Positions 3,401 through 48,285 of a stretch of 48,644 bases of DNA are shown here, piece after piece (the stretch's first letter is position 1; the number at the start of each line of letters is the position of its first letter). The stretch comes from Escherichia coli (lineage in GTDB: Bacteria > Pseudomonadota > Gammaproteobacteria > Enterobacterales > Enterobacteriaceae). Below the pieces are notes generated by a model. That model was not told the DNA's origin. It saw only the letters and a program-made list of their open reading frames with translations, and did no database searches. The DNA is taken from NCBI RefSeq assembly GCF_016903815.1, contig NZ_CP069971.1; one strand, 5' to 3'. Both the position numbers and the translations under genes were made by a program.

Positions 3401-3432
3401 ATAAATAACCCACCATTCACGATTGATGAGAC

Positions 3433-4585: not shown

Positions 4586-4589
4586 ATTA

Positions 4590-4683: not shown

Positions 4684-4706
4684 CCAAACACATGGAGTCT
4701 CGACAA

Positions 4707-5360: not shown

Positions 5361-5391
5361 TATATAATTATAGTTTTATAGATTTATATAA
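5361..5391. repeat. AT-rich palindromic site between parA and the ParG-like gene
   Basis: tatataattatag ttt tatagatttatataa, the same motif family as at 4590-4683. Confidence 0.45.
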
Positions 5392-5403
5392 AAGGGGATA
5401 CAC

Positions 5404-5652
5404 ATGGCCGCACCATCAAAACCACCGAAAAAGAACAGCAAAGGCGTACCGCCATCAATCGAACAACCGCAGGTTTTCGACCCGACTGAAACGCCGACCA
5501 GAACCAAATCAGGTGGGGCACAAATGGCGTTTAACGTCGACCCTGAATTTAAACGCGAGTACAAAACGTTCGCCAGCTCAATGGATATGTCATTGAAAGA
5601 AGTGCTGACAAAATCTTTTGAGTTACTCAAGGCTCAATACAACCAGAAGTAA
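5404..5652 (+). CDS. small partition/centromere-binding protein, ParG-like (predicted ribbon-helix-helix)
   Basis: 82 aa; flexible basic N-terminus and C-terminal MAFNVDPEFKREYKTFASSMDMSLKEVL, RHH-like; immediately downstream of parA. Confidence 0.55.
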   Translation: MAAPSKPPKKNSKGVPPSIEQPQVFDPTETPTRTKSGGAQMAFNVDPEFKREYKTFASSMDMSLKEVLTKSFELLKAQYNQK

Positions 5653-5874: not shown

Positions 5875-5900
5875 AAAAAAGGCCCCCGAAGGGGCCTAAT
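5875..5900 (-). terminator. intrinsic terminator (GGCCCC-CGAA-GGGGCC, T-run on minus strand)
   Basis: Perfect GC hairpin flanked by an A6 run on the plus strand, i.e. T6 on the minus strand; lies between convergent genes. Confidence 0.65.
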
Positions 5901-5902
5901 CG

Positions 5903-6022
5903 CTACTTGCTGCTAATGTTTATCGTCACATTCAGAGCGTTATCAGTAATCTTCCAACCCTCCCCATGTGGCGTAAACAAAGCTCCAGTAACAACGATAA
6001 AAATACACATACAGTATTTTTT
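5903..6022 (-). CDS. small hydrophobic peptide (about 40 aa), function unknown
   Basis: MKKYCMCIFIVVTGALFTPHGEGWKITDNALNVTINISSK with an AGGG RBS, ending at the terminator hairpin. Confidence 0.3.
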   Translation of the reverse strand, partial: KKYCMCIFIVVTGALFTPHGEGWKITDNALNVTINISSK

Positions 6023-6423
6023 CATTGTATGGCCCTTACAGGCCGTTTCACGGCATCCCCACCGACGAAAACAACGCGAGAGCAAGCACGGCTGCTTGTG
6101 CTTGCATGTACGGCAACGGAGAATCCTCCCCTAAAGTCGGTGCCCGGGTGCGAATCGGCGGGAAGGTCCACAGGTATTTTACGATTATTTTAAGATTAGT
6201 TATAGGAAAGAAATTAAACGAAAAAACTCGTTTATTTTCACAAAATCAGTAACCTACCCACAATCTGTGAGTTTGCAGGCACAACAAGAACCACAATTTT
6301 ATGAAGCATAATAGTGGACTATTATTACCTTTTGGGTAAAATTAACTTGCTGCTTGTGCTTGCGTGGTTGTTTATACAACAACGTAATGCTGAAAGGACC
6401 GCGAATCCGATCAGCACGAAAGA

Positions 6424-6483: not shown

Positions 6484-6593
6484 TGTCTCTGTTAAAATCC
6501 CGCCGTATTGACATAAATGCGCCATTGGTGGACACTTTCCTAGCCGTAGCAAAATCTACGGTCGGGATTGGAACCCCGTAGACACAATGGCGC

Positions 6594-6616
6594 ATACCGC
6601 GTTAGCGGTTTTTTTA
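6594..6616 (+). terminator. second terminator-like hairpin in the antirepressor leader
   Basis: ACCGC-GTTA-GCGGT followed by T7. Confidence 0.45.
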
Positions 6617-6781
6617 TGCGTAAAGCACTGCTACACCCAAATTATGGTGGGGCGTGCGGGGGAGTCGTAAGACTCGCCGGTTCGTCATTGTGTCCGGTAG
6701 TTCCAACCCTGCACGTCTCACCACCCAATGATTGGAACCTGACGGTGGTGAGTATCCTTAACCTTTAAGGGAATCATCACA

Positions 6782-6973
6782 ATGACAAACCTACCCCATG
6801 ACTATTACGTCAACCTCGTAAAGATCCTTCTCAAGAAAGCCTCATACGCCGATAAATTCCGCCTGGCTGAAATAATCGAGCGCGAAGCTATGCGCATCGC
6901 CAGCAACGATAACGCTGTTTCTGTCGCAAAAATCTCCCTCGTAACCAAAGTAGTTATGGGAGGTGCAAAATGA
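6782..6973 (+). CDS. small protein translationally coupled to the antirepressor gene
   Basis: 63 aa; its stop overlaps the ATG of the next gene (ATGA overlap at 6970). Confidence 0.45.
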   Translation: MTNLPHDYYVNLVKILLKKASYADKFRLAEIIEREAMRIASNDNAVSVAKISLVTKVVMGGAK

Positions 6974-8151
6974 AAACGCTTCCGACCGTTAACACCCTAC
7001 AGCCTATCCTGCATAACCAGATCCCCGTTATCACTACTGAACTACTGGCGCAATTGTATGGAACCGAGCGCCAACGTCTGACGAACAATTTCAATAGAAA
7101 CAAGGAACGTTTTATAGAAGGTAAACACTTTTTTAGGATAGAAGGTAAAGAGTTACGAGAGTTGAAGAACAAAAACTCTTTAAGAGTTCCTGTGAGAGTA
7201 GTTAACGAACCATCTTTAAGAGGGTTACAAATTCCCCCGAAAGTTCGCTCCCTCATCCTCTGGACAGAACGCGGGGCTGCACGTCACGCCAAAATGCTTG
7301 AAACTAACCAAGCGTGGGATGTGTTCGAACGGCTGGAAGACTGCTATTTCAGCCAGAACGCGCAAACGGCCGCGACCGTAACCGTCTCGCCAAGCAATGC
7401 TCGTGAGGTTGTTGATACGCTCAACGCCAAACCAATGTATTACGTTAAGGTGTGCAATAACGAGCCACTCACAACCTCAGCCGATGTTGCCCAGGCATTC
7501 AGCACCACAAACAATTCCATCGTTATGGCCATCGATGCGTTACGCATTCCTCGCACAGCTGCGGCGCGTCATTTCTTTAAAGAGCAACGACCGTTGGAAG
7601 GAAGCGACCGCGAAATAACAATCTATCGCATGACAAAAGACGGATTTACCTTGCTCATGGAAAGTATCGACGGTCCAAGCGTGAAGGATATCAAGCTGGC
7701 CTACATTGAAGCTTTTAACGCTATCAGCAGCGTGTTAAAGGCAGAATACGAGCGAATACTATACAACCGACTGTATCAGGAAACAAAGATTATCCGAACG
7801 GCAACAGAACATCATCGGCTATTAACGGAACCAAACTACCGCAAGACACTAATCAAAGAGTTTGACAAAGCGACGGAGAAAACTAAAGCGGCACTAAATC
7901 TACCAACAATGACTAAGGATGATGTGATATCAGCCTTACTTCTTGATCTACTCAGAAACGCCAGAGCACTTATAAGCTTTGACGAAAACCTGAATCCTCA
8001 GCTCAAGCTACTACCACCGACAGGCAAAGTAGTCGACCAGGCTGATCACAACAGCATACTCAGCGTTCTGGATGCAAACCTGCCAGCCAGGACACTACAG
8101 GAACTGATAAAAATATCTGCGGATAAACTGGCCGCAGGTGCAAAACCATAA
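6970..8151 (+). CDS. antirepressor-like protein (ORF6N/KilA-type N-terminal domain)
   Basis: 393 aa; N-terminal ...NNFNRNKERFIEGKHFFRIEGKELRELK...LILWTERGAARHAKMLETNQAWDVFERLEDCYF matches the ORF6N-type antirepressor pattern as I recall it. Confidence 0.6.
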   Translation: MKTLPTVNTLQPILHNQIPVITTELLAQLYGTERQRLTNNFNRNKERFIEGKHFFRIEGKELRELKNKNSLRVPVRVVNEPSLRGLQIPPKVRSLILWTERGAARHAKMLETNQAWDVFERLEDCYFSQNAQTAATVTVSPSNAREVVDTLNAKPMYYVKVCNNEPLTTSADVAQAFSTTNNSIVMAIDALRIPRTAAARHFFKEQRPLEGSDREITIYRMTKDGFTLLMESIDGPSVKDIKLAYIEAFNAISSVLKAEYERILYNRLYQETKIIRTATEHHRLLTEPNYRKTLIKEFDKATEKTKAALNLPTMTKDDVISALLLDLLRNARALISFDENLNPQLKLLPPTGKVVDQADHNSILSVLDANLPARTLQELIKISADKLAAGAKP

Positions 8152-9792: not shown

Positions 9793-10173
9793 TTACTTAA
9801 CGAGGAATAAAAATGGTTTATTGTTCGGCGGTGTAATCGGGGCTGGCTCGCTTTTGCTCATGCGATCAGTGTACCAAGCCAACTCCTTGTCAAAGTAAGC
9901 CTGATTAAAATAGGCCATGAATGTAGTTTCAAATCCATAACGACCGCTAATACGCAGCATCTGATTGCCGTTCTCTGTTTCCAGATATACCTGGGCACGT
10001 TCCTGATTCTCCTTCAGCCAGGTTAAAGCCTCATCGCATGAGGACACACGATACTCATCATCGTAGCCGTCATCGATGCGGCTTGAGGAAGAACGGCAAA
10101 TCACGCCAACAGAACCAGCCAGGATAGTTTGAATTTTAAGGAAAGCGTTTTTGCGGATTTTAATCATGCTCAT
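9793..10173 (-). CDS. hypothetical protein (126 aa), first gene downstream of cassette copy 2
   Basis: ORF with a GGAGA RBS supplied by the conserved leader; no family recognised. Confidence 0.5.
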   Translation of the reverse strand: MSMIKIRKNAFLKIQTILAGSVGVICRSSSSRIDDGYDDEYRVSSCDEALTWLKENQERAQVYLETENGNQMLRISGRYGFETTFMAYFNQAYFDKELAWYTDRMSKSEPAPITPPNNKPFLFLVK

Positions 10174-10285
10174 CGGGTTATCTCCGGTTTAACCAGGGCG
10201 GGTATCGCTCGGTTTCGGGTATAACCTTAGGAAATTTTTTCCCACCTGTAAAGCACTTTTTATATAAATCTATAATTATATAAAT
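10174..10285 (-). promoter_or_regulatory. conserved promoter-leader cassette, copy 2
   Basis: Identical to copy 1 over about 103 bp. Confidence 0.6.
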
Positions 10286-12867: not shown

Positions 12868-13848
12868 TTAATGTTGGAGTGATTTCCAGGTCTTTCTTAG
12901 CCTGTTATAACGCTGCTCAACGAGGGAGCGTAAATATGCAAGGTCAGCACCAGGATACATGCCATCAGCAAATTCCTGGCTAACCTCTCTAGTGATTTGA
13001 TGACGAAGTTCGGCCTCTCCCTTTTCCTGAACAAGACGCGCAGCTCTCTCCGCTGCTTTCTGTTTTGCCTTTATCTCTCTGGCCGTCTTCCTCTGACGCC
13101 ATACATTCTCCATCTGCTCCTGAATAACAATACGCTTATAATCAGCCTCCGTTATCGCTTTTTTAAGCCGTTCGCTATTCTTCGCATTGAAGTAATTAAG
13201 TTTCTGGCTAACCGCACGTCTCCATGCTTGTTCAGTAATACCAACTGTTTCCAGCAGTTGATCACGAATCTCGATTTTCGCTGGCCAATACTGTTTATTC
13301 ACCCGATCCCAGCGACGTTCATAATCAATAAAACCTAACTCTTTCAGTTGCGACAACGCCCTTGTACAGCGCGTTATAGACTTGTTCCCAGCTTCGGATA
13401 CGGTAGACAGGCCGCAAAAATCAGCCAACGCCTCAGCACTGGCCAGAACCCGCTTAGAAATGATGTTTACATGGTGCAAAATCGCAGCAATCACAGCATT
13501 AATCGCCCGACGACGATGCTCGTTTATCCGGCGTTTCCGCTCTGACGGTTGATTAACGTAGAACGCAACCTCACACGTAAGATCACGACCATTAATGCGC
13601 TGTAAAGCATCAGATAACACCAGCGGCAGCTTGTGCGTATGGTGCTTTGGAGGCTGGAACTCCGGCGACAAATTACAAACGTAAGCTGAACGTAGAGACG
13701 GCATTGGTCTATCCATATGTTCGCTCTTGCGTCCACGGAAAACCAACGTATAATGGGAGTTGTCGAGGCGCCCATGGATTGTTGTTGTTGGTTTTCCGTG
13801 GATGTCGCAAGAAGCCCGCAGATTTATCTGCGGGCTTTTTGTTTCCAT
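12868..13848 (-). CDS. repA: replication initiator RepA (IncFII RepA-like); may include a leader ORF, with an alternative internal start near 13716
   Basis: ...CGLSTVSEAGNKSITRCTRALSQLKELGFIDYERR... resembles the conserved core of IncFII RepA1 (recalled, not searched). Confidence 0.65.
   Translation of the reverse strand: METKSPQINLRASCDIHGKPTTTIHGRLDNSHYTLVFRGRKSEHMDRPMPSLRSAYVCNLSPEFQPPKHHTHKLPLVLSDALQRINGRDLTCEVAFYVNQPSERKRRINEHRRRAINAVIAAILHHVNIISKRVLASAEALADFCGLSTVSEAGNKSITRCTRALSQLKELGFIDYERRWDRVNKQYWPAKIEIRDQLLETVGITEQAWRRAVSQKLNYFNAKNSERLKKAITEADYKRIVIQEQMENVWRQRKTAREIKAKQKAAERAARLVQEKGEAELRHQITREVSQEFADGMYPGADLAYLRSLVEQRYNRLRKTWKSLQH
13762..13840 (+). ncRNA. CopA-like antisense RNA opposite the repA 5' region (putative)
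   Basis: Plus-strand promoter TTGCGT (13727-13732), 16-nt spacer, TATAAT (13749-13754); terminator AGCCCGCAGAT..ATCTGCGGGCT + T-run at 13813-13840, antisense to the first repA codons and RBS. Confidence 0.5.
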
Positions 13849-14055
13849 ATCTGGTCATTTTCCAACCAGACACCCACAATCATAACCACGTTACGTGGTT
13901 TTAAGAGAACTCTACCACAACACTTTCGGTCATGCACGAAGTCTCTCACTGATCGAACGATAATCCACCAGTAAAAGGATCTAAATTGGATCTCGTTTTG
14001 CGAGCATCATACTACTGGCCTAACTCCAGTCAATGATGAACATAACAACACTCCT

Positions 14056-14583
14056 TTATTCTGGTTTGTCTGGCCATTCGGGGTTTGCTGTGTCCACGCG
14101 ACTGACAAGAACACTGTAACGTTCCCAGGCTTCCAGTCGGATACGCTCCTCATCTGTTGCCATGCTCAGCCTGACAGCGCGTTCCAGCGGCCGGATAACT
14201 GATTCAGCTTCGGAAAGTAACGTGGCCTTTTGTGATTCGGCCTGTTGTTGCTGTTCGCCTGCCGTATAAATCCGCTTAATCACGGCACCATCCTTAAACA
14301 TCCATTTACCTGAGTCATCAGCACGTCGGTTGGAGGTAATATCAGGAACCTCAACAACGCTAAAACCTTCAGGATTAAGCGTTGAAGCATCTCTGGTGAT
14401 AGCGACAATAATATTATTTTCATCGTAAACAATCTTTATTGTGTCTGGCTGAAAGTTCTTCACTTCCTCATACCAGTTTTTCCCGTCTTCAGTGTAAAGC
14501 CAGATGACTCCGTGCTTCTTTGTTAACTCATACTGTTCCAGTGTTTTAGCGTTACCCGCTTTTATGTTCTTTAAGTGCATCAT
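14056..14583 (-). CDS. tail fibre assembly protein (Tfa-like)
   Basis: C-terminal ...[27 protein letters not shown], the Tfa signature. Confidence 0.75.
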
Positions 14584-14584
14584 A

Positions 14585-15625
14585 TTAAACGCTCGCTACA
14601 TTATACCAGGTGCCATTTATATACTTTTGAACGGGTCTGTAATAAACGCCCGCTATATTATCGGCAGAGTTGGACCCTGTATCCTGAACATTAATACCAG
14701 ACAATACATGACCTGACGGGCACTGGAAATTCCATGTTTGCCAGTTATTCACTCCATAATATTGCTGTGAACCAAGTCGAACATCTTTCACATATCTGGA
14801 ATCAAAATTGCCATAGTTGCCGGGAATAACTTGCGAGCCGCAAAGCCAATTCCCGTTATTATCCATGTACGCCTGACCATCGGTGCCATTTTCTGTCCTT
14901 GAATTATTAATCATGTAGATGCCAAATTGCTTATTCCCCAGACCACCAATCATAAATTTGCGATCAGCATGGTCCTGACGTAACAATGCCTGAGCACCAT
15001 CGGTGGATACCACATTACGTCCGAAAATAACATTCTGGTCACGCATATTTATCCACATGCCGGTACTGCTATTAATTGCCAAACGATTTGCATATACCCA
15101 AGCATTGGTTCCTATATCACCAGTAACATTGAGTCCATTACCGATAGAAACAGCGCCATTGGCGTTATTAATGGCAAACGGCCTTAAACTACTCCATGTT
15201 CCCAGGCTGTCTCCCGAATTGGTCAACATGAAGTATGTGTTTGAACCATCGTTTCGGATAAAGAATCCATAGTTGCCATAGGCAATACGCAGACCATTCG
15301 CCGATTTGGAAATAATCTCGCCATCAGCCGTTAAACCGCCGGTAAGAGTTCCTCCCGTTATTGGCAATGCACCAATATTTTTCGGCGTCAGGTTAATATC
15401 TGATGTTCCATCAAACGAAACGTTATTAATTTTACGGGCTGTTTTCAGCTTTGTAGCCGTTGAGGCATTGCCGGACAGCTCACCAGAAATGCCACCAACA
15501 ACTGTTAGATCACCAGTTATTGTGCCGCCTGAAATTTCCAGTTTTTTAGCAACATTACTCTTAATAGAGTCGATTTCATTTTTCAGATTAGTTATATCTG
15601 CTGGTATTGTTGTCACTGTTGCCAT
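14585..15625 (-). CDS. tail fibre protein (second, shorter variant)
   Basis: Contains [28 protein letters not shown], a motif shared with the 792-aa fibre; followed by the Tfa gene. Confidence 0.7.
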
Positions 15626-15634
15626 ATTAATTCC

Positions 15635-15913
15635 TTACGCCCATTCCCGCAGCGGTTGTTCTAATTGAACTTCAAAACCATCAAACATTTGTTGTTTCAA
15701 ACTGTCGTTTAAAATACGAACATTAACAAAGAAGCCATCATTTTTAATCACTGTTGGTTCTTCGTTCTCGCCGTTTGGTATTTCGGTATATGTAATACCT
15801 ACAACATCAAGAAGGATGTTGTTTTGCAGTTCTTCATTATCGTGCCAGGATATACTCTCTAAAAAAGAGTCGTATTCTGCTCTGTCTCTGAATTTCAACG
15901 TAATATCTTTCAT
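15635..15913 (-). CDS. hypothetical protein, possibly a fibre chaperone
   Basis: 92 aa; start overlaps the fibre gene stop (TAATG). Confidence 0.35.
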   Translation of the reverse strand: MKDITLKFRDRAEYDSFLESISWHDNEELQNNILLDVVGITYTEIPNGENEEPTVIKNDGFFVNVRILNDSLKQQMFDGFEVQLEQPLREWA

Positions 15914-18291
15914 TAAATAACCTCAGCCATTTGTTGGTCTGTTAATGCTTTATGCCATATTCTGAAATTCCTGATATGACCAAATAAATGACGTAAGCCT
16001 GCTGTAGTCTGGCCTCCAATACGGATGGTTGCAGAGTTCTGAATATAGGACCACGTAGTCTTTGTTTCGCTGGATATGCGCCCGTTACTTACTGAGCACG
16101 TAGACTGATCTGATTTTACACGCATCCCCATAACCATTTTTTCAAGCGATGCGTTTTCGTTTACCCGTCTGTTAGCTCCTCCAATATTGCAATAAGGAAA
16201 TCCGTCGTAATCTGTTGAACGACCGAAGCCAAGAATAATAGCCGCTCCGGTTTGATGACCGCCTGTATCAAAAACACGCGGCGCTGCATTTGGCGTTTTA
16301 TACCAGTTCTTATGTACCTCACAAAGAACCGTAAAAGGAAGATTATAAAGATTATTATTAATTGGAACTGTAACTATATCGCTTGCGCGGGTAGCCGCCG
16401 TCGTTCCTGAGATAATAAAAGATGATGCACACGAACCATCCTCAACCTGAGGGGTGGCCAGATAAATATAGTCTCCAGATACGGTTGCTCCGCCCTGCTT
16501 AGGAGAATACTGTATCTGAGATCCTATTTTTAACTCATCATCAATTGCCAGGATTGTTGCCTCTGCAAAAATCCATCCGGTAGCTTCGTCCTTTCTGACT
16601 CTCGCTGTAATCCTTGAGGCCGCGCCACCTGTCATATTAATTTCAAGCGTTTGTGTATCAATATATGCATCACCAAGAAAAGTTGTTGCACTACCGTCAT
16701 ATTTATCAAAGCGGATACGCAACCTTACCTGTCGTTCTGTTTTAAAACGACATGAGGTTGTCACGTACTTGTTATCGCCTGAAACATCAACTGACTTTGT
16801 AGCAGCAATTGATGCCATATTAATGGCTGACGTTTGCCCAATCAGAGAATCGTTACAGACAAACTTTCCATAGGTAAAACCAAAACTATCAGTCCCGGTT
16901 TCGGGAACATCCATATTTGACGATCGCCCCCAACTGGCAGGGTTTTCCGAATTGAGCATGTAGTTTGTTCGTTGTCCCTCAATAAGCAGGCCATCACGTT
17001 CAAATCGTGGCTCGTCAATGGCAGCCTCTGTAAGCACACCAGATTTATTAATATAGGTTGCTTTCGATGCGCGTTTAAACTTAACAACCTTGTCGCCAGG
17101 CATTGTTATTTCGTCGTCGCCAATAACAATCTTTTTATATGATGGCGAAAAGCCCGTAATCATATCCAGCGAATCGTTAAACGGTATCCACACATCAGGT
17201 AGCGGTTGAATAATCTTCCGGGCATCCTCCAGTGACAATGCTTCGATATCCGAGGCTGTTAAAGTAATATCTGACGAACCGTCAAATGAAACGTTGTTAA
17301 TCTTCCGTGCGGTTTTTAATTTCGTTGCGGTGTCGGCGTTCCCCGTCAGTGCGCCGTTGAGTCCGCCGTTGAAAGTCTGGCGTTCACTCCATGTGTTAGC
17401 CGTGCTCAACAGGGGGATCTTTTCACCGCTTGTGCCGAGTTCTCTTAAACCAAGGTACTGGATAACAGCAAGGACACTTGTTTTAGCCAGAATATTACGG
17501 CCGACTGACGTTAAATCAGCCAGGGCTACTGTGTCTTTACCGGTAAAGTACGGCAATTTATTTGCAGCCGTCGCAAGTCCTGCCAGAGCGGTGAGCGTAT
17601 CATCTGCTGGTTGTTTTTGCTTTGCTAGGTCAAACACTTCTTTGACGGCTTTTGGCGTTGCTGCGCGCGTTTCAGAGGTACTGTTAGTGTCACTACTGAG
17701 TTGAACAATGCCTTTTGAGGTTAAAGTTGCATCAGGATGATTACGTGATTGCTCATGTTTTACAATGGCTTGCTTAAGTCGCTTTGCTGAAACAGCTAGG
17801 GAATCATCTGTACCTGCATCAATTTCTTGTTCATTAGCAAATCTTGCTACTCCAACAACAGTTTCGGTTGCGGGAGGGTTAATAAACTCAACATCACCAA
17901 ATGTAATGTTTTTAGTATCAAGATTTTTAATTGCTATATCACTTGATATTAAAGCAATTGTAGAAGATGCTTTATTTATTATTACTTGTTCTTGCGAGTA
18001 TACAGCAAACAATGTTCCTTTATTTGTATACAAACCTATTGTATGGACAACATACTCATCTTTACTATCATCCTTCGCAGTTACATGAATGGTATCAGGA
18101 GAAACGACTTTGCCTCCTATTGTGGTAAGTCGCTTTATTTCATCTGTTATTTTTGTTTGTGTGGTTGATGTGACATAATATCTACTACCTAAACCAACAG
18201 AAACGATCTCAACTTTATTTGTTCCAGTCTTGTTGGCATTAACCAGCTCCTGACGCCCGGCGTCAGTCATCGTAAATAATAATTTACTCAC
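15913..18291 (-). CDS. tail fibre protein (long)
   Basis: 792 aa; [28 protein letters not shown] motif; directly downstream of the baseplate genes. Confidence 0.75.
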   Translation of the reverse strand: MSKLLFTMTDAGRQELVNANKTGTNKVEIVSVGLGSRYYVTSTTQTKITDEIKRLTTIGGKVVSPDTIHVTAKDDSKDEYVVHTIGLYTNKGTLFAVYSQEQVIINKASSTIALISSDIAIKNLDTKNITFGDVEFINPPATETVVGVARFANEQEIDAGTDDSLAVSAKRLKQAIVKHEQSRNHPDATLTSKGIVQLSSDTNSTSETRAATPKAVKEVFDLAKQKQPADDTLTALAGLATAANKLPYFTGKDTVALADLTSVGRNILAKTSVLAVIQYLGLRELGTSGEKIPLLSTANTWSERQTFNGGLNGALTGNADTATKLKTARKINNVSFDGSSDITLTASDIEALSLEDARKIIQPLPDVWIPFNDSLDMITGFSPSYKKIVIGDDEITMPGDKVVKFKRASKATYINKSGVLTEAAIDEPRFERDGLLIEGQRTNYMLNSENPASWGRSSNMDVPETGTDSFGFTYGKFVCNDSLIGQTSAINMASIAATKSVDVSGDNKYVTTSCRFKTERQVRLRIRFDKYDGSATTFLGDAYIDTQTLEINMTGGAASRITARVRKDEATGWIFAEATILAIDDELKIGSQIQYSPKQGGATVSGDYIYLATPQVEDGSCASSFIISGTTAATRASDIVTVPINNNLYNLPFTVLCEVHKNWYKTPNAAPRVFDTGGHQTGAAIILGFGRSTDYDGFPYCNIGGANRRVNENASLEKMVMGMRVKSDQSTCSVSNGRISSETKTTWSYIQNSATIRIGGQTTAGLRHLFGHIRNFRIWHKALTDQQMAEVI

Positions 18292-35569: not shown

Positions 35570-36121
35570 TTATTCTTCCTGCTTAATAAATCGGGATTCC
35601 TGGAGCGCCTGAAGCGCAAAATTAATCTCGTCTTCAATAATGCGTTCGATCTCCCTGGCTGTTTTGCCTTCACAACGGGGAGCTGCTCTTGGAGCAATAC
35701 TAAATAAGCGGCTACGCAATTCATTAGCTGCCAGAAATGCATCATCCCTGACCGCATCTTTAGCGATGAGAGAGCCTTCCTTTTCTTCAAATTCAAGGCG
35801 TTTCAGCTTTGCCTGATAAATTTTTTCTGCGGTCTTAGCCTTGTTGAATTGCACCGCAACACCGGAAGTACCACCAGCTAATCCGGCATCATCAGCGGGT
35901 AACTCTGGTTGTTCCGAAGATATCCCATGCCCTCTTTTTCCATTTTCAGCAGATACCTCACGACCAACCTGTCGGCTCGCTTCATAAGCCGCACTGGCTT
36001 TATCAAAATCCAGCTTGCCGCTTTTCAGCACTGGAATGCGACCGGAACGACAGAGCTTCGTAACCATTGCCGGAGAAATACCTTTCCGGCGGGCAAACTC
36101 TGACTTACTGACGATGGCCAT
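35570..36121 (-). CDS. terminase small subunit (Nu1-like)
   Basis: MAIVSKSEFARRKGISPAMVTKLCRSGRIPVL... HTH N-terminus; ATG overlaps the upstream gene stop (TAATG). Confidence 0.7.
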   Translation of the reverse strand: MAIVSKSEFARRKGISPAMVTKLCRSGRIPVLKSGKLDFDKASAAYEASRQVGREVSAENGKRGHGISSEQPELPADDAGLAGGTSGVAVQFNKAKTAEKIYQAKLKRLEFEEKEGSLIAKDAVRDDAFLAANELRSRLFSIAPRAAPRCEGKTAREIERIIEDEINFALQALQESRFIKQEE

Positions 36122-36711
36122 TACTTGCAACCATTGGCAAGATACTGAACAAATCCCTCATGCGTTTCATGCGCGTCGTGGTACTGACGATAAACATCCA
36201 GCAACAATGCAATTTCCATATCCGTCGCGGGAATACGTTCTTTATCAATAGCCAGGTACTTAATTTGAACAACAGGGGAAGAATTATCGTCTTCTTCCTG
36301 CGGCTGTTCATCGCTTAACATTTCGTCAAGCTCTGCATCATTAAACCCAAGCAGATCAATATCAAAATCATCATCCATTAACTCTTTGACTTCTTCGGCC
36401 AGAAGCTGCATATCCCAGCCAGCATTTAAGGCCAGCTTGTTATCTGCAATCCTGTACGCCTTCTTCTGTTTTTCAGAAAGGTTACTCAACCGAATCGCCG
36501 GAACTTTATCCATTTCCAGAATTTCGGCTGCTGCAAGCCGCCCATGCCCCGCAATCAGTTCATTCTTTTCATCGATCAGCACAGGATTAGTGAAACCGAA
36601 CTCACGGATACTGTTCACCAACTGTTCAACTTGCTCATCTGAATGAGTCCGTGAATTTTTGGCATATCTGAGCAGCTTACCGACTGGTAAATATTCGATT
36701 TTTAGAGCCAT
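36121..36711 (-). CDS. ParB-like N-terminal domain (ParB/Srx fold) protein
   Basis: 196 aa; ...LIDEKNELIAGHGRLAAAEIL...; paralog of 39378-40001. Confidence 0.7.
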   Translation of the reverse strand: MALKIEYLPVGKLLRYAKNSRTHSDEQVEQLVNSIREFGFTNPVLIDEKNELIAGHGRLAAAEILEMDKVPAIRLSNLSEKQKKAYRIADNKLALNAGWDMQLLAEEVKELMDDDFDIDLLGFNDAELDEMLSDEQPQEEDDNSSPVVQIKYLAIDKERIPATDMEIALLLDVYRQYHDAHETHEGFVQYLANGCK

Positions 36712-38004: not shown

Positions 38005-39384
38005 CTACTTAATCAACGGCCGGAAAGCCGCCAGCACATCATCAGATCGTCCGATTGTTGAACCACCAGGCAACGGCAACTCAAACTCAAAACGAACAGC
38101 TTTCTCCAGACTCGCCCAACTAAGGGAATCATCGTTAATGACGTGCAAATACCAGCTCTTACAGTTGAATATTGACCGCTTAATCCTGAAACCATGTACA
38201 CGACACAACTGCTTCACTTCCTCATCAGAGTGAAACTTCTGGTAAAACCAGTGCCCCTTCCGGTACAACGCGGTAAAACCGTCATGATCAATAAAATAAA
38301 GCCGGCTTTTGGAACTCGCCGCTTGTGTTTGCTTCAGGACTGTTTCCAGTTCTCCACGGCTACGGCCAGAAAAGAATATTGACCCACCAGCTTTACACAG
38401 GCCTTTCAGAACCGTCAGAACGGACCATTCAGCCTCGACACTATCGACCGAGTTCAAAACGCTATCGCAAATCACGTAGTCGTAACGCCCTCGCGTTTTT
38501 AAGTCGTCCACCAGCGTATCAATCATCCGGTTTGTTGCGGCCCTATCCAGAGTGTTTCCAGCGCCCTTACGGCGGAAAAGCTCGAGATCATGCAGGTTAT
38601 ATCCCTTTGCCCTGAGCATTCGCGCGTAGTCTCCCTGCCCCGAACCAAAATCAATTCCTCTTGGCGTCTTGGCAATGATCGGGAGGATCAACGACTCATA
38701 CAGATTTGATTTCAGGCTGCCACCATTACGCAACCGCATAAGCTGCGCATACGTCTGGATGTATGTTGTTTTCTCCAGATGAGAATACTCAAATACACCA
38801 TAAGTTTTATTCAGATAACTTTGGTATTTTTCCTTCTCAACATCAGGGATCACAAACACCGTTAGCGGTGTGCGCGTCATTTTCGCTGCTAATGCATACT
38901 GAGCACAGTGAATAACCTCACCAGACTGAGTAGCAACACAACCACCCCACGGACCATACTTGATAACCAGTTCCGCTATGTTCTTTCGAACATATGCCAT
39001 TTTCGCGCGCATATTGCCTGAGATCTGGCTTGCCGATACCTGAACAAAACCATGCTTATCTTCCAGACCGGACACCCTGCAACGCTCATCTCCGCTATCA
39101 AAATCCGTTCCGTTATGCAGTTGGTTAAACCGTACTTCGTCGTATACCGTCGTTTCACAGGGCAACACATACACCGCAGCACGCGTTATTCCCAACTTAC
39201 GTAGCGCCTTCGTCCTTTGGTGTCCCGCCACCAGCAAATCGCCGCGCACTATCAATGGCTTCACAAGCCCCAGCTCCCTGACGCTTTCCGCCAGCCTCGC
39301 AAGATCATCCTCACCGATAAAACGCGGGTTATATTCCGCGCCGCGTAGGTGCGTTATGTCGTAATTGAGGTGAAGCATCAGCAC
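38005..39384 (-). CDS. fusion protein: ParB-like N-terminal domain + class-I SAM-dependent methyltransferase-like C-terminal domain
   Basis: N-terminal ...LIVRGDLLVAGHQRTKALRKLG...; C-terminal GIDFGSGQGDYARML, DYVICDSVL, LCKAGGSIFFSG motifs; no DPPY/NPPY motif seen. Confidence 0.65.
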   Translation of the reverse strand: MLMLHLNYDITHLRGAEYNPRFIGEDDLARLAESVRELGLVKPLIVRGDLLVAGHQRTKALRKLGITRAAVYVLPCETTVYDEVRFNQLHNGTDFDSGDERCRVSGLEDKHGFVQVSASQISGNMRAKMAYVRKNIAELVIKYGPWGGCVATQSGEVIHCAQYALAAKMTRTPLTVFVIPDVEKEKYQSYLNKTYGVFEYSHLEKTTYIQTYAQLMRLRNGGSLKSNLYESLILPIIAKTPRGIDFGSGQGDYARMLRAKGYNLHDLELFRRKGAGNTLDRAATNRMIDTLVDDLKTRGRYDYVICDSVLNSVDSVEAEWSVLTVLKGLCKAGGSIFFSGRSRGELETVLKQTQAASSKSRLYFIDHDGFTALYRKGHWFYQKFHSDEEVKQLCRVHGFRIKRSIFNCKSWYLHVINDDSLSWASLEKAVRFEFELPLPGGSTIGRSDDVLAAFRPLIK

Positions 39385-40001
39385 ACCTCCCCAGCCAGCA
39401 ATGCGGATACAAATCCGATATAGCTGCCATTATCATCAACATAACGAGACACCGCGCAGTCAAAACGATCCGCTTCCTCATCCGTTGCCGGGATTTTATG
39501 ACCTCCAAATGACAGGTACTGAACTTTTACGCCTGATTTGGCCTCATCCTTCTCAAATGGGATATCCATACCCTCTGTGTCATCGTAGACTGCCGCACTC
39601 AATAAGTTATCCAGTTCGCGCTGAGTAAAACCAATTGAGTCCAGAGCAAAATCATCGGCCGCAAGATCTGCAAGCTCCGCGCTTAACAACTCTTCATCCC
39701 AACCAGCATTCAGCGGAATACGGTTGTCGGCCAGACGATATGCCTTCTTCTGATTCTCCGTTAGCCCAGCCAGAACAATGCAGGGAACATCATCCATCCC
39801 CAACTGAGTGGCCGCAGCAATTCGACCATGACCAGCAATTACAACGTTGTTCTCGTCTATCAGGATCGGATTAGTCCATCCGTACTCCTGTATGCTGGCA
39901 ACAATCTGATCTACCTGCTCCACGGAGTGTGTGCGAGCGTTCTTTTCATAACCAATCAACACAGAAAGTGGTAAAGAAACCACATTAAGATGTTTTGTCA
40001 T
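39378..40001 (-). CDS. ParB-like N-terminal domain protein (paralog)
   Basis: 207 aa; aligns by eye with 36121-36711 over most of its length. Confidence 0.7.
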   Translation of the reverse strand: MTKHLNVVSLPLSVLIGYEKNARTHSVEQVDQIVASIQEYGWTNPILIDENNVVIAGHGRIAAATQLGMDDVPCIVLAGLTENQKKAYRLADNRIPLNAGWDEELLSAELADLAADDFALDSIGFTQRELDNLLSAAVYDDTEGMDIPFEKDEAKSGVKVQYLSFGGHKIPATDEEADRFDCAVSRYVDDNGSYIGFVSALLAGEVC

Positions 40002-40235
40002 GCCGTTTATCCGCTAAAATCCCCTCGCTTGTGCAAGCAAGTGGGCCTCGGTTTGTATCCACGGCACCCTGTGGGTATGAATGACTGTCGTCAGGTCGCA
40101 ACTGACGGCGGTCGCCCACCTTCCAGTAATAAAAAAGCCACCAGCATTAACTCCACAGCGAGCAGGAGTTAATGAGGCAGCTTTGGTTTGCGCATTATCG
40201 CAGCCCCTGATTAGCACAAGAGCTGCTGTAATGCG

Positions 40236-40646
40236 TTACGCAGGGATCAAACAGATGTGGCCGTTATTTACCTCAATACGGGAATATTCCGGCTTACCAT
40301 CCACGATTCCGGTAATGACAAGTTCGCCATCAGGCGACCATTCTTCTTTGTCGTCTTCAAGTACCGCGCCTTCTGGCAAATCAATACAGGCAAAAACAGG
40401 GCAGCCAGGATGACGTTTATCCTCCATCGCAATCAGCATCGACTCACCGAACCACTCTGTGGTAGCACGGCCATCAGCCGCCTGATAGTGAATCAGATAC
40501 TGGTTTTCGCCATTTGCATACTGAGCACGGGCTTGAACTTCTCCCCACTCTTCACTGATACGCATTGTTACCAGTTGGGATAATTCAAACTTAAACGGAA
40601 CAGACTCTGCACCAATGGCAATCGGTTTATCTTCTTTCTTTTCCAT
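40236..40646 (-). CDS. hypothetical protein (about 136 aa from ATG 40646)
   Basis: AGGTGA RBS before MEKKEDKPIAIG...; a hairpin terminator lies just upstream. Confidence 0.45.
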   Translation of the reverse strand: MEKKEDKPIAIGAESVPFKFELSQLVTMRISEEWGEVQARAQYANGENQYLIHYQAADGRATTEWFGESMLIAMEDKRHPGCPVFACIDLPEGAVLEDDKEEWSPDGELVITGIVDGKPEYSRIEVNNGHICLIPA

Positions 40647-40844
40647 AACATCACCTGAAAATAAAAAGCCCCGCGACACCGCGAGGCTGTAAGAGTTACT
40701 TTCGATATAAATCAAGGCGCATTTGCTCCCGCTTAAGCCGAAAAGCCCTCTGCGCCACTAAGATGCGCCACAGGACACCAGCGATAACCACCAGCGAGAT
40801 ACAAAAACACACGGCCACAACCATCAGAAAAATGCCAACACCAT

Positions 40845-41057
40845 TCATGAAACTATCCATTCTTCAATGAATATCTCCAGTAATGTCAAGAGATACGCCG
40901 TCCCCAGCGCGGTTCCTACCGATATAGCTAAGACAAACCTCAAAGATAACGAGGTGTCTTTCGCTTTTCTCCAGACGTAAGCGCCAGCTAGAAATACCAA
41001 CAAATCTCTTATTGGAAGCGGAAACCAGAACAAATCACTCGGCATAAGCACGATCAT
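40845..41057 (-). CDS. small membrane protein
   Basis: 70 aa with two hydrophobic segments. Confidence 0.4.
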   Translation of the reverse strand: MIVLMPSDLFWFPLPIRDLLVFLAGAYVWRKAKDTSLSLRFVLAISVGTALGTAYLLTLLEIFIEEWIVS

Positions 41058-41334
41058 CTTCCGCTGCTGATTTACATGCCGCAGTTACTGATATATTGAT
41101 AACCGGTGCGCTAATCGTGATGGACGACGCTGTCGGTTGACGCGATATAACTGAACGATGGCTATCAATGAAGTCCACAATCTCATTCAGGCACTCTTTA
41201 GCTGCCTCATCGTGACTTTTTCCGTATGCTTCATGGAGGACTTTCATCCTCATCATTGCTCCGTCACATATAGTCGAAAGCGCGTAAAGCACATCACTAA
41301 CCGCCATTTCTTTTTTGGTGCTTGTCGAAGGCAT
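41035..41334 (-). CDS. hypothetical protein
   Basis: 99 aa; AAAGGAGAA RBS. Confidence 0.45.
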   Translation of the reverse strand: MPSTSTKKEMAVSDVLYALSTICDGAMMRMKVLHEAYGKSHDEAAKECLNEIVDFIDSHRSVISRQPTASSITISAPVINISVTAACKSAAEDDRAYAE

Positions 41335-41408
41335 CCCATGTTCTCCTTTGTCTGGATGTAAAAAAGCCCCGGCAATTGCCGAGGCTCGTTGTTCGTTATC
41401 GTTACGGT

Positions 41409-41609
41409 TTAATGCTCGCGTCGTCCGGCGACAACTTCGGATTTGTATTTCAGGTCGCCCAGCAAGAATTGCAGTTTAAGCATCTTTGCCGCCGTGTAGT
41501 TTCCTGATTCCACAACCTCTTTCATGAGGTCATAAACGGCCGCAACATCATCAGCCAGGAACTCTTTGCGTTGCTGCTCAGTCGCACGTTTGAAGGAAAT
41601 ACGCATCAC
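41409..41609 (-). CDS. hypothetical small protein
   Basis: 66 aa, coupled to the upstream gene (4-nt overlap). Confidence 0.4.
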   Translation of the reverse strand: MMRISFKRATEQQRKEFLADDVAAVYDLMKEVVESGNYTAAKMLKLQFLLGDLKYKSEVVAGRREH

Positions 41610-41875
41610 TCATCATCTCCTGCCGCACATACAACCTCACAAAAAACATCAGCGGAATGTTTCTTTTTGAATGAATGGCGCTCAAAACCGCACTCAATAT
41701 CAGGCGCAAAAACATCCACCACATACGGTCTTTCAGAATGTTTGTTTTCCCAACGATAAACCGTAGTGACGTTGAAATGTTTTAACGCTTCACGGTACTC
41801 AACGCTGCCCGTCAGGTTTTTTGAGGTCAGGTATTGCAGGAGGTTTTTTACTACTTCACGGTCTTGTACTTTCAT
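41606..41875 (-). CDS. hypothetical protein, first gene downstream of cassette copy 3
   Basis: 89 aa; RBS supplied by the conserved leader. Confidence 0.45.
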   Translation of the reverse strand: MKVQDREVVKNLLQYLTSKNLTGSVEYREALKHFNVTTVYRWENKHSERPYVVDVFAPDIECGFERHSFKKKHSADVFCEVVCAAGDDE

Positions 41876-41987
41876 CGGGTTATCTCCGGTTTAACCAGGG
41901 CGGGTATCGCTCGGTTTCGGGTATAATCATAGGAAATTTTTTCCCACCTGCAAAGCACTTTTTATATAAATATATAATTATATAATT
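41876..41987 (-). promoter_or_regulatory. conserved promoter-leader cassette, copy 3 (four substitutions relative to copies 1 and 2)
   Basis: tatctccggtttaaccagggcgggtatcgctcggtttcgggtataatcataggaaattttttcccacctgcaaagcactttttatataaatatataattatataa. Confidence 0.6.
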
Positions 41988-42575
41988 CTATGCCACTTGC
42001 CAGAGAGCATCATGCAACTGGATACCTCCATTGCACTGGTTGCCCCAGCCATGCCAACCATCAGGTAAATCACCGCGAGCAAACAGCTCAATACGAGGAA
42101 CATCACCTAACAGCCTTACCAGCTTGTCACGAACCACATCAGGCTTCCGAGAATGCTCCAGACGAGGCGATGTAAACGACTGAATGATCCCCGCATCAAG
42201 GCGGGTCGGCAATTTGCCTTTTACCGCAAACAAGCAATCTTCACTGTTTGCACGAGTCATATGCCCCATCCCCATCACCAGCTTATCTGGTTGTCGGCTA
42301 CCACATTTGTTCCATGTGAAGCCCTTCATGGTCATAAGCCTGAATCCCCATGCTTTCACCACCAGCAACGCTTCTTCTGGCTGAGTCGGAACCCACCACA
42401 TGGCCAACAAACACGATTCAGGATTAGCAAGCTGCCAGACAGGAATACGAGCAATATCCTCAGCTTTCATCGTTGGATACTTAAAACCAGCTCCACGATT
42501 CCCATCCTTACACTTATCTTTGTATTCCCAGGGGGGATCTGCATAAATCAGATTAAACAATGCAATTGCCTCCAT
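41988..42575 (-). CDS. MT-A70-family DNA N6-adenine methyltransferase
   Basis: 195 aa; LIYADPPWEY and ...SRKPDVVRDKL... motifs. Confidence 0.75.
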   Translation of the reverse strand: MEAIALFNLIYADPPWEYKDKCKDGNRGAGFKYPTMKAEDIARIPVWQLANPESCLLAMWWVPTQPEEALLVVKAWGFRLMTMKGFTWNKCGSRQPDKLVMGMGHMTRANSEDCLFAVKGKLPTRLDAGIIQSFTSPRLEHSRKPDVVRDKLVRLLGDVPRIELFARGDLPDGWHGWGNQCNGGIQLHDALWQVA

Positions 42576-42883: not shown

Positions 42884-42959
42884 TGGTGGCCCCTACCGGA
42901 TTTGAACCGATGACCGTGCGATTATGAGTCGCCTGCTCTAACCACTGAGCTAAGGGGCC
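42884..42959 (-). tRNA. tRNA with CAU anticodon (Met or Ile2-type)
   Basis: 76 nt; GGCCCCTTAGCTCAGTGGTTAGAGCAGGCGACTCATAATCGCACGGTCATCGGTTCAAATCCGGTAGGGGCCACCA; cloverleaf folds by eye, encoded CCA end. Confidence 0.8.
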
Positions 42960-43100
42960 ATATTTGATCTGTTTGTCTGGTGTGGCGCCGCGCACGAAAA
43001 TCCCAGCCAATAAATTCAGGATTTTTGGGCGCGGCGGCATATCAGACAAACATGGTTGATGCGTGCGCCCATGAGAAAAGCGCATAGAATGTTGTAACTA

Positions 43101-43130
43101 TATATTTATATAATTATAGAAATATATATT
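43101..43130. repeat. AT-rich palindromic site (tatataattatag) upstream of the tRNA
   Basis: Same motif family as at the par locus and the cassettes. Confidence 0.45.
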
Positions 43131-43338
43131 ACTTTCGGCAGTTGATTTCCCATGCCCTGTTATGAGCCAGAATATCTTTCTTTGTCTGGCGGTCCATAAC
43201 ATCGATGTCGTGATCAGTCAGGTAGATGGGCTTTACCCAATCACAGGCGGTATCAACCACCACCGGGACGCTTCCACGACTCCCGCAGCTCGCGATCAAC
43301 ATCGTCATCAGCCATATGGTTAACACTCTGCTGTACAT
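43129..43338 (-). CDS. o-spanin-like lipoprotein (Rz1-like)
   Basis: 69 aa; lipobox-like LIASCGS; overlaps the 3' end of the i-spanin-like gene in another frame. Confidence 0.5.
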   Translation of the reverse strand: MYSRVLTIWLMTMLIASCGSRGSVPVVVDTACDWVKPIYLTDHDIDVMDRQTKKDILAHNRAWEINCRK

Positions 43339-43531
43339 TCCCCACCTCTTTTGTCACTTCTATACGCCGCTCCGCAGTGGCTTTTACAGCGGCTGCATTC
43401 TCATTAATGCGCTGCTTTTCAGCTTCATCTTCGGCCTTTTCTCGCCCCTTCATACGACCAAAACCAAACGCACCGAATGCAACCAATATAACGGTGCCGA
43501 TAAATGACAAAACGGCTTTCAAACCAGTCAT
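43253..43531 (-). CDS. i-spanin-like protein (Rz-like)
   Basis: 92 aa; N-terminal TM helix then a charged coiled-coil-like segment. Confidence 0.55.
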   Translation of the reverse strand: MTGLKAVLSFIGTVILVAFGAFGFGRMKGREKAEDEAEKQRINENAAAVKATAERRIEVTKEVGNVQQSVNHMADDDVDRELRESWKRPGGG

Positions 43532-44070
43532 ACCACCACTCGCTCTTTCATCCAGCCGTAGACAAACGACTCATTAGCCTCGCGCTTCTCCGCCAGCTCC
43601 AGATAGCGTTCGCCCTGCGTACAGTTCAGCGACGTCAGCATCACCCGTTCGCCGTCTTTTCCCCGATTCCCAAGATAAGCACGTAGCGCATTAATGGTAC
43701 GTGGACCGATTCGTCCGTCTGCATCCAAATCGGGATACAGCTTCCCGCGCAGGTTGAACACATTCAGCCAGCGTTGAAGCATTTTTGACGCCACTGTTGG
43801 CCCCATGTTCACCCCCGTGTCACACAGCTCTGCGGCAATATCAGAGGATAATGCGGCCACCTGATCAAAGCGTGGTCCGTACCAGTAATCAGCCTCAAGG
43901 ATTTCCAGTGCCTGTTCGCGGGTTAAATCGCGCATATCGCCACGGTATCCATGAGCACGGGCAGTGTTCTGAGTAATGCCCCACTTTGTTGGGCCTCCCT
44001 TGTCGTCAGGGTGATCCACATAGCCGCCCTCTTTTCCAAGAACGCTGTTAAAAATCTCATCTTTGGTCAT
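43528..44070 (-). CDS. endolysin, glycoside hydrolase family 108-like
   Basis: ...VLGKEGGYVDHPDDKGGPTKWGIT... N-terminal motif. Confidence 0.75.
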   Translation of the reverse strand: MTKDEIFNSVLGKEGGYVDHPDDKGGPTKWGITQNTARAHGYRGDMRDLTREQALEILEADYWYGPRFDQVAALSSDIAAELCDTGVNMGPTVASKMLQRWLNVFNLRGKLYPDLDADGRIGPRTINALRAYLGNRGKDGERVMLTSLNCTQGERYLELAEKREANESFVYGWMKERVVV

Positions 44071-44353
44071 GATTAAACCCTAATGCGTCAACTATCCGCG
44101 CCAGATTGCCCCTGAAATACAGAACAACGATGCAGATAATCAGATTTCCAATAACCACCAGCCAGTGGGATTCTTGATAAAGACCGAACACATAACGGAA
44201 GGGAACATTGGCGTATACAATGACGTAGATATAAGCCAGAAAGGAAACAAATGGACGATGCCTGGAGTCTTTCCGTCGATAAAGCATCAGCGCCATTACT
44301 ATTACTGTGCAAAGCACCGCATTAATCAGTGCTGACGGGTCACTGCTTACCAT
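44057..44353 (-). CDS. holin/antiholin-like membrane protein
   Basis: Hydrophobic segments; sits between holin and endolysin. Confidence 0.4.
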   Translation of the reverse strand: MVSSDPSALINAVLCTVIVMALMLYRRKDSRHRPFVSFLAYIYVIVYANVPFRYVFGLYQESHWLVVIGNLIICIVVLYFRGNLARIVDALGFNHDQR

Positions 44354-44735
44354 TTGAACCCCCTCCACGTAAGCGGGAAAGCATTCCAAAGATGCTACCG
44401 AGATCCTGGCTGTTTACGAACGTGAGGATTTTAATTGTCAATGCAGCCACAATAACCGCACCAAGTGCATCAAGAGGACGATCGTTGTAGCTGGTCCATT
44501 TGGCAAGAAATGAGCCAACTAACGGCGCTCCAATCACTCCAACAATGAACGATGTAAAGAAATAGCCAATCAGCTTGAGACGGCTAATATTCACCGCTGT
44601 AGCAACATAGAAAACAGCGCCAGCAAATGCCCCGAATACAACGCCGTAATCAATACCAGTTGCAATACCAAAAACGCTGGCCCCCATCAGGCCACCAGCA
44701 GCAACGGCCGTACCGGAAATTGGTTCTGCTGACAT
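44340..44735 (-). CDS. holin
   Basis: 131 aa with several TM segments; GAGGA RBS; first gene of the lysis cassette. Confidence 0.65.
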   Translation of the reverse strand: MSAEPISGTAVAAGGLMGASVFGIATGIDYGVVFGAFAGAVFYVATAVNISRLKLIGYFFTSFIVGVIGAPLVGSFLAKWTSYNDRPLDALGAVIVAALTIKILTFVNSQDLGSIFGMLSRLRGGGSNGKQ

Positions 44736-47961: not shown

Positions 47962-48260
47962 GCCACAGCCCCTCTCAACGGCTTAACTTTGGCTAATAAG
48001 GTGTTAAACAACATGGAGTTAGGGTTCATGCCAAATGGCAATTCCGGTTTAGCGGAGTAGTACAGGCAACCATTTATTTTCCTGGTTGTTATCTGTCCTT
48101 CGGCAACCATGCTTCTCAGTCTGCAACGCATAGAGTTCTGCGACACACCAATGTGCTCCGCGATTACGTCCACTTTTGAACATGGGTGATCGGTCAGGAA
48201 ATTAATCACATCTTGGGGGTTAATAATTTTGCGTTTCATTGTCGAGGCGTCCTTATACAT
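47958..48260 (-). CDS. putative winged-helix DNA-binding protein (PapI/FaeA-like)
   Basis: ...INFLTDHPCSKVDVIAEHIGVSQNSMRCRLRSMVAEGQITTRK... Confidence 0.4.
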   Translation of the reverse strand: MYKDASTMKRKIINPQDVINFLTDHPCSKVDVIAEHIGVSQNSMRCRLRSMVAEGQITTRKINGCLYYSAKPELPFGMNPNSMLFNTLLAKVKPLRGAVA

Positions 48261-48261
48261 T

Positions 48262-48285
48262 TATATAAATATATAATTCTATATA
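48262..48285. repeat. AT-rich palindromic site (tatataaatatataattctatata)
   Basis: Same motif family as the other seven copies. Confidence 0.45.

Follow-up and report, generated by a model that had tools for sequence, protein, structure and literature searches.

What do small genes of no recognizable function do when a phage-plasmid keeps them together, in order, behind a single promoter-like cassette? The window analyzed here, by which we mean the whole stretch of 48,644 nucleotides (nt) from Escherichia coli contig NZ_CP069971.1, is a phage-plasmid of about 48.6 kb. It carries six small genes, g1 to g6, all on the minus strand, between an MT-A70 gene and ParB/Srx-methylase genes. Our best explanation, held tentatively and with somewhat less than even confidence, is that they form a conserved, non-structural accessory operon, promoted by the cassette, that acts on the host or on establishment of the element. 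The products would then work on the host cell or in establishment, not in the virion or in replication, and their roles might include counter-defense, host takeover or exclusion. The initial annotation had described an operon of five genes with one membrane protein. Its five open reading frames (ORFs) are all there, including the genes of 99 and 136 amino acids (aa); the count becomes six with a missed 54-aa transmembrane (TM) protein, g5, and the membrane proteins number two (g4 and g5). The genes are:

41606-41875, minus strand: g1, 89 aa; its ATG ends the copy 3 cassette repeat; phrog_6143
41409-41606, minus strand: g2, 65 aa from ATG 41606 (66 aa if GTG 41609), basic, presumably helical; phrog_6621
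41035-41334, minus strand: g3, 99 aa; phrog_8319 / phrog_14707
40845-41045, minus strand: g4, 66 aa (70 aa if ATG 41057), two predicted TM helices; homologue in the relative L016
40696-40860, minus strand: g5, 54 aa (50 aa from 40848 in the RefSeq annotation, PGAP), N-terminal TM helix and basic tail; found by PGAP, homologue in L016
40236-40646, minus strand: g6, 136 aa, acidic (isoelectric point, pI, 4.5); phrog_1935

Are frames this short really genes? The decisive comparison is with L016, a metagenomic distant relative that keeps the whole order of MT-A70, g1, g2, g3, g4, g5, g6 and ParB_N. Identity to L016 is 60% for g1, 75% for g2, 26% for g3, 48% for g4, 43% for g5 and 49% for g6. Synonymous sites are saturated (proportion of synonymous differences, pS, 0.69-0.84), and the nonsynonymous proportion, pN, is below pS in each gene scored (g5 not among them). 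Because these syntenic homologues combine saturated synonymous sites with pN below pS, we conclude that the genes are real. The ratio of nonsynonymous to synonymous rates (dN/dS) against L016 is 0.15 for g1 and 0.08 for g2, a constraint equal to that of the methylase and ParB genes on either side; the remaining genes, g3 to g6, evolve fast. Close relatives differ by only 1-19 substitutions per gene, so that dN/dS is uninformative among them. This last point, the shortness of the ORFs and the swapping, deletion or frameshifting of single slots in some relatives would suit a view of the ORFs as non-functional remnants or chance frames in a recombination-prone spacer. However, L016 retains the six in unchanged order, at 26-75% identity and with synonymous divergence saturated, ribosome-binding sites and coupled stop/start overlaps are present, and g1 has a high-confidence fold; that view is scarcely credible and largely refuted.

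The same comparison bears on the start codons. The initial annotation had given g4 as a 70-aa two-TM protein. The ORF from which this came (40845-41057) is present, and a start at ATG 41045 (66 aa) is most likely, because the 11-nt overlap of g4 with the g3 stop is kept in L016; g4 is absent from the PGAP annotation. The g5 gene overlaps the 3' end of g4, and its 54-aa form is supported because the homologue in L016 likewise begins, within the 3' end of g4, with MD. For g1 and g2, the predicted coupling holds, with the g1 stop and g2 start overlapping as TGATG, which points to translational coupling; the 66 aa first given for g2 would require the GTG. By sequence, the operon is arranged as three putative translationally coupled blocks (g1-g2, g3-g4-g5 and g6), with a predicted intrinsic terminator closing each. 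The control features are:

41926-41954, minus strand: predicted sigma-70-like promoter of cassette copy 3, with -35 TTTGCA, 17-nt spacer and -10 TATGAT (9/12 matches)
41876-41919, minus strand: leader with a small predicted hairpin (z about -2.3, weak) and Shine-Dalgarno sequence GGAGA; 5' end estimated from the -10
41962-41993, no strand assigned: 8-bp iteron array (TTATAKAW), 7 nt upstream of the copy 3 -35 and overlapping the MT-A70 stop
41358-41387, minus strand: T1, predicted intrinsic terminator after g2, 10-bp GC-rich stem (41364-41387) and U6 (U-run 41358-41363)
40657-40688, minus strand: T2, predicted intrinsic terminator after g5, about 20 nt before the g6 start, 9-bp stem (40667-40688) and U-rich tail
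40125-40184, minus strand: T3, predicted intrinsic terminator after g6, long imperfect stem (40134-40184) and U6AUU

Transcription most likely starts at the sigma-70-type promoter predicted in cassette copy 3. The cassette is a 114-nt repeat present in three copies (734-847, 10170-10283 and 41872-41985), and on the minus strand each reads as three tandem 8-bp units, a -35 TTTRCA, a 17-nt spacer, a TAnnnT -10, a leader of about 43 nt, GGAGA and ATG. As the initial annotation had it, the 89-aa gene is headed by the third copy: the g1 ORF starts right after that repeat. The TAnnnT pattern and its spacing are conserved across all cassette copies and relatives, and the cassette is 88% identical to that of L016, with the differences concentrated at the -10/start-site region. 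We take the cassette to be under selection, because this identity persists despite saturated synonymous sites. A scan of the minus strand over 40236-41870 returned no other promoter-like site, all such sites lying in the cassette, which agrees with the single cassette-headed transcription unit first proposed. The other two copies, also on the minus strand, head different genes. The copy at 734-847 precedes a DUF3560 gene that, on a circular sequence, would run across the ends of the window from 738 to 48600, and the copy at 10170-10283 precedes a 126-aa gene followed by a 90-aa helix-turn-helix gene.

A terminator-like hairpin had been placed at about 41345-41375. The hairpin exists as T1, at 41358-41387, and it is one of three terminators, not the only one. 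T1 has a local fold of -20.9 kcal/mol (z -4.0) and precedes the start codon of g3 by about 25 nt; it is identical in six relatives and recognizable in L009 and L016. In L016 (1217-1556), g2 is followed directly by a terminator of its own, then by about 250 nt of apparently non-coding sequence, and only then by the T1 homologue, directly before g3; because of this placement, we read T1 as traveling with g3, not with g2. L016 also has a terminator at the position equivalent to T2. T3 is the second of three hairpins in the spacer between g6 and the ParB/Srx gene, which is very structured (z -6.8 over 40100-40236), and 63-65 of 66 nt are conserved in six relatives. The gaps from T1 to g3 and from T2 to g6 are each only about 20-30 nt. 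In the mechanism we propose, the terminators would grade expression, giving high levels of g1 and g2 and lower levels of the distal blocks unless there is read-through.

The tandem units at the head of the cassette recur elsewhere. A tandem-unit scan found eight arrays of at least three 8-bp units (TTATAKAW) in the window (824-855, 4579-4610, 4652-4691, 5360-5399, 10260-10283, 41962-41993, 43098-43137 and 48253-48284), whereas 20 shuffles yielded none. Of the eight, three surround parA, three are in cassettes, and two adjoin other minus-strand units. They look like a shared operator/centromere system that might tie partition to phage transcription. The ribbon-helix-helix (RHH) regulators ParG of TP228 and omega of pSM19035 bind short tandem-repeat arrays, and the 8-bp periodic arrays of the window resemble the ParG/omega operators in flanking parA and recurring at several promoters, including that of the operon. 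The ORF directly after parA (5404-5652, plus strand) encodes 82 aa, with a basic, proline-rich N-terminal tail and, by eye, a short strand-helix-helix-like C terminus. Its size and layout, again by eye, are those expected of a ParG/omega-type iteron binder, for which it is a candidate. Unlike ParG and omega, however, it matches no RHH family by sequence, and an RHH assignment gained no support from Pfam or PDB sequences.

Which of the products is the best place to look for a function? The most useful lead is g1, which has a confident model and no solved neighbor, and which recurs as a first gene across mobile elements of several kinds. Structure prediction, one of the follow-ups suggested at the outset, gave a confident AlphaFold2 model for g1 (predicted local distance difference test score, pLDDT, 91.5), with the order alpha-alpha-beta-beta-beta-alpha, for which no solved structural neighbor was found. 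A Foldseek search of the AlphaFold Database returned only the protein's own family plus weak integrase-arm-like matches, and the C-terminal beta-beta-beta-alpha half of the model gave weak matches to AP2 and integrase-arm DNA-binding domains. The family comprises 29 representative clusters, and many members are 160-255 aa long; these long relatives carry the g1-like region of about 90 aa at the N terminus, followed by one of several unrelated C-terminal extensions. No member of the family matches Pfam, and the C-terminal extensions match no Pfam family either.

The positions of g1 homologues in other elements add context. In two Rac-like prophages (L017 and L021), the gene that comes first after the repressor is a g1 homologue. 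Pavtokvirus-like phages, PEp14 among them, carry one close to the beginning of an operon that diverges from the terminase genes, and on large plasmids the homologues adjoin an orphan N6 methylase or a hok locus. The small ORFs that follow g1 homologues in these other elements were considered as counterparts of g2 and are not its homologues, and no leader similarity was seen upstream of the g1 homologues there. It is possible, though we think it doubtful, that g1 would found a new family of promoter-proximal establishment proteins that neutralize host defense on DNA entry. In that joint reading, the family would have a conserved domain of about 90 aa, joined in longer relatives to a swappable C-terminal module, and would extend across lytic phages, lambdoid prophages, phage-plasmids and large plasmids.

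The remaining products are more reticent. Pfam gave no match for g1, g2, g3 or g6 (g4 and g5 were not scanned), NCBIfam and PADLOC gave none for any of the six, and no PDB sequence matched g1, g2, g3 or g6. In PHROGs, g1, g2, g3 and g6 belong to families of unknown function, and g4 and g5 belong to none. This agrees with the first impression that none has a known phage function, and the five proteins first listed are not all assignable to known families. The g2 and g3 genes are confined to this phage-plasmid lineage. A Hok/Gef-type toxin identity for g5 found no PHROG, NCBIfam or PADLOC match (Pfam was not run on g5). As holins, g4 and g5 found no PHROG or NCBIfam match, and the tRNA and MT-A70 genes separate both from the lysis cassette.

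The g6 family occurs in enterobacterial prophages and has a core of about 95 aa. Its model suggests an N-terminal SH3/Tudor-like barrel (residues about 15-77) plus an optional C-terminal extension, with HspQ/YccV as the closest structure; the model is only moderately confident, with pLDDT about 75 in the domain and 59 overall. Homology to HspQ/YccV was tried and rejected: no Pfam match appeared even at E <=10, none appeared in a profile search against the PDB, and hhalign against HspQ gave a probability of 0.3% (against an HspQ sequence entered by hand). HspQ/YccV (PDB 5ycq) is a hemimethylated-DNA-binding domain and Lon specificity factor, and g6 differs from it by its phage context, by an additional acidic part at the C terminus and by the lack of any Pfam or profile match. 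True homologues of the g6 N-terminal domain do exist in L33 of phiP27 (80% identity) and the "L33" proteins of ESSI2 P2-like phages (53%), which are also uncharacterized; these differ from g6 in being shorter (65-115 aa) and in lying in late operons adjoining terminase genes.

That the operon is accessory follows from the g1, g3 and g6 slots, because all three are replaced, deleted or varied among relatives. In pMB9272_3, an unrelated 86-aa protein occupies the g1 slot, next to a g2 of 36% identity. In the phages vB_YpM_41/44, an in-frame deletion of g1 leaves its first 8 codons fused to g2. The g3 gene has a constant N-terminal region of about 65 aa and a swappable C terminus, with alleles of 99 and 151 aa. 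The g6 slot holds a DUF2513 protein instead in some relatives, or a g6 extended to 237 aa by a tail-fiber-assembly fragment, and g5 is frameshifted or truncated in some. This extension and the g1 deletion occur together in vB_YpM_41/44 (3111-3824 and 4740-4961 in vB_YpM_41, L002); the homologue of g6 there carries, joined in frame, a tail-fiber-assembly-like N terminus of about 100 aa (PF02413, cluster P0003).

How do these observations bear on function? Phage morons, of which HK97 gp15 and lambda bor/lom are examples, are inserts made up of promoter, gene and terminator. The operon resembles them in its small, non-essential genes, some of which encode small membrane proteins, in the terminators directly after g2, g5 and g6, in its location between the lysis and packaging modules, and in being swapped or lost among collinear relatives. 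It differs in that six genes are kept as an ordered set under one shared promoter cassette, with no promoter of its own found for each unit, and in that its base composition is not anomalous (GC content 0.43-0.49 for the genes, compared with 0.443 for the window). Promoter-proximal early counter-defense genes are known from T7 gene 0.3 (Ocr) and from the anti-defense genes of plasmid leading regions. Like these, g1 homologues stand first or early in early operons, or beside orphan methylases or hok on plasmids, and the operon products are small, some acidic, and unannotated; unlike them, they have no sequence or confident structural similarity to known anti-defense proteins.

An establishment or counter-defense role for the operon is plausible, with the anti-defense idea arising by association only. 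The lead candidate effector would be g1, as a new alpha/beta protein whose relatives have swappable C-terminal modules; g4 and g5 may form a small inner-membrane pair, and g6 may be a small acidic binder with a barrel domain. The local context, with methylase genes flanking the operon, was counted in favor of this explanation. Several points weigh on the other side. Guilt by association with methylases is weak evidence, and no homology to known anti-defense proteins was found in PADLOC, PHROGs, NCBIfam or, for g1, g2, g3 and g6, Pfam (no dedicated anti-defense library was used). No promoter-like site precedes g3 or g6 in the scan, so that their expression would depend on read-through. The operon has the lysis module on one side and the packaging module on the other, which in lambdoid phages is a late-region position. 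Late operons also hold the g6 homologues of phiP27, where the lysis genes lie on one side and HNH/terminase just downstream, and of a P2-like phage; in ESSI2 phages the homologue is between the small terminase and head-completion genes. Burkholderia phages are mixed, with g6 homologues early or terminase-proximal: just upstream of HNH/terminase in phiBt-TXDOH, and among small early-region genes in Bcep176. The initial annotation took the whole set to be early genes; the positions of homologues suggest early expression for g1 only, and the comparisons made for g6 favor a place in the late region.

Other explanations deserve weighing against an accessory operon that acts on the host or on establishment. 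The operon could be a lysogenic-conversion or superinfection-exclusion module, expressed in the plasmid state, in which g4 and g5 with g3 block the DNA entry or lysis of competing phages, in parallel with the small membrane morons of other temperate phages. The conservation of g4, with its two TM helices, and of g5, with its single helix and basic tail, their translational coupling to g3 and the bounding of units by terminators would fit, and the promoter-adjacent iterons, being the same as those flanking parA, suggest that a regulator of plasmid maintenance, active in the carrier state, exerts control. We nevertheless regard this as unlikely, since neither g4 nor g5 has a match among known exclusion proteins or PHROGs, the g3-g5 block has T1 upstream of it and no separate promoter was found for it, and g5 is frameshifted or truncated in some relatives. 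It is less likely again, and distinctly improbable, that g1, alone or with g2, acts as a transcription factor or antiterminator on the shared cassette leader or the downstream terminators, to turn on the distal genes as well as the packaging operon. It is tempting to think of lambda, where the first early-left position is the place of N, because g1 homologues stand first in the early-left operon of Rac-like prophages, next to the repressor, and g1 in the window is first after the cassette. Transcription beyond g1 would also have to pass three terminators, conservation of the leader is strong, and the C-terminal half of g1 gave the weak AP2/integrase-arm DNA-binding matches. However, N is small, basic, arginine-rich and largely unfolded, whereas g1 is compactly folded and near neutral (pI 6.1), and no counterpart of the leader was seen upstream of g1 homologues in other elements. 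Of a nut-type (boxA/boxB) site, the leader offers only the weak predicted hairpin (z -2.3; no formal nut-site search was made). Moreover, g1 is dispensable, as shown by its unrelated replacement in pMB9272_3 and its in-frame deletion in vB_YpM_41/44, which are deposited complete phage genomes (host Yersinia pestis EV76-CN). No antiterminator or late activator was recognized among ten other minus-strand proteins either (eight from the early region and two from the unit headed by the second cassette copy).

The flanking methylases raise a further option, marginally less probable than a regulatory g1, in which g6, perhaps with its neighbors, helps to modify or package phage DNA late in infection by working with the methylases or terminase. 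Methylase genes do lie on both sides of the operon, g6 homologues are near HNH/terminase or the small terminase and head-completion genes in the phages named above, and the predicted barrel is closest to HspQ/YccV, a hemimethylated-DNA-binding and Lon-adaptor protein. But sequence-level tests for membership in that family failed, the g6 model is only moderately confident and SH3-like barrels are very common, an unrelated DUF2513 protein replaces g6 in some relatives, and the Bcep176 homologue is among small early-region genes. We return to the accessory operon acting on host or establishment as the explanation that we tentatively prefer. As an object it is of an ordinary kind, a small accessory phage gene cluster; nothing in the sequence is surprising or overturns current understanding. 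All six gene families are uncharacterized, and the operon offers a short list of candidates for counter-defense, exclusion and host-takeover screens.

The element itself belongs to a phage-plasmid lineage that is widespread yet almost unstudied. The 1.9-kb operon region is matched in 71 of 5,426 complete E. coli genomes (about 1.3%), clinical isolates included, and 208 of the 211 matching places are plasmids, mostly of 46-50 kb and non-mobilizable; it also matches three Yersinia myophages of about 49 kb (vB_YpM_39/41/44) and a partial E. coli phage record. Literature searches on the lineage yielded nothing beyond a passing mention, and the phages, protein accessions and PHROG numbers yielded nothing useful. 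A pSLy3-like label for the element was considered and dropped, as the literature puts pSLy3 in the SSU5 supergroup of about 100 kb. We read the gene context from the PGAP annotation of an identical plasmid, NZ_CP064105.1. It contains a CI-like repressor, an early operon, a lysis cassette, a tRNA gene and the MT-A70 methylase gene, then five hypothetical genes, three ParB/Srx-domain genes (one methylase-fused), and terminase, head and tail genes; it also carries repA, a toxin-antitoxin pair and parA. The immediate neighbors of the operon, from PHROGs and PADLOC searches and PGAP, are:

41988-42575, minus strand: MT-A70 family DNA methyltransferase gene, directly upstream of the operon
39378-40001, minus strand: ParB/Srx-domain gene, downstream flank
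38005-39384, minus strand: ParB_N-methyltransferase gene, after the ParB/Srx gene

With a third member at 36121-36711, these make three ParB/Srx-domain genes in a row on the minus strand upstream of the terminase genes, the middle one fused to a methyltransferase; together with the MT-A70 gene, they form a DNA-modification neighborhood around the operon. In PGAP, the lysis cassette (43129-44735) comprises a GH108 gene and a pair of holin-family genes; it also takes in two small ORFs. At its end, a 69-aa ORF (43129-43338, minus strand) with a lipobox-like LIASC motif overlaps a 92-aa ORF (43253-43531, minus strand); by eye the two look like a spanin pair, and only the 92-aa ORF is annotated in PGAP. 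The tRNA gene (42884-42959, minus strand) is tRNA-Met (CAT) according to ARAGORN and tRNA-Ile according to PGAP; a lysidine-type Ile tRNA would fit.

Elsewhere in the window, Rfam places isrK and C4 antisense RNA (6543-6615 and 6640-6728, plus strand) just upstream of an ORF6N-domain antirepressor-like gene (6970-8151, plus strand), an arrangement like the immI immunity module of P1, with ryfA RNA on the other strand (5875-6171, minus; Rfam). Pairing of the C4/isrK RNA (6543-6728) with the cassette leader was considered and rejected, there being no complementary stretch of at least 7 nt. The tail-fiber region (about 12868-18291, minus strand) has 80-94% identity to tail-fiber segments of P1, P2, Mu and lambdoid phages, and a hin DNA invertase annotated in this region of relatives suggests an invertible host-range segment.

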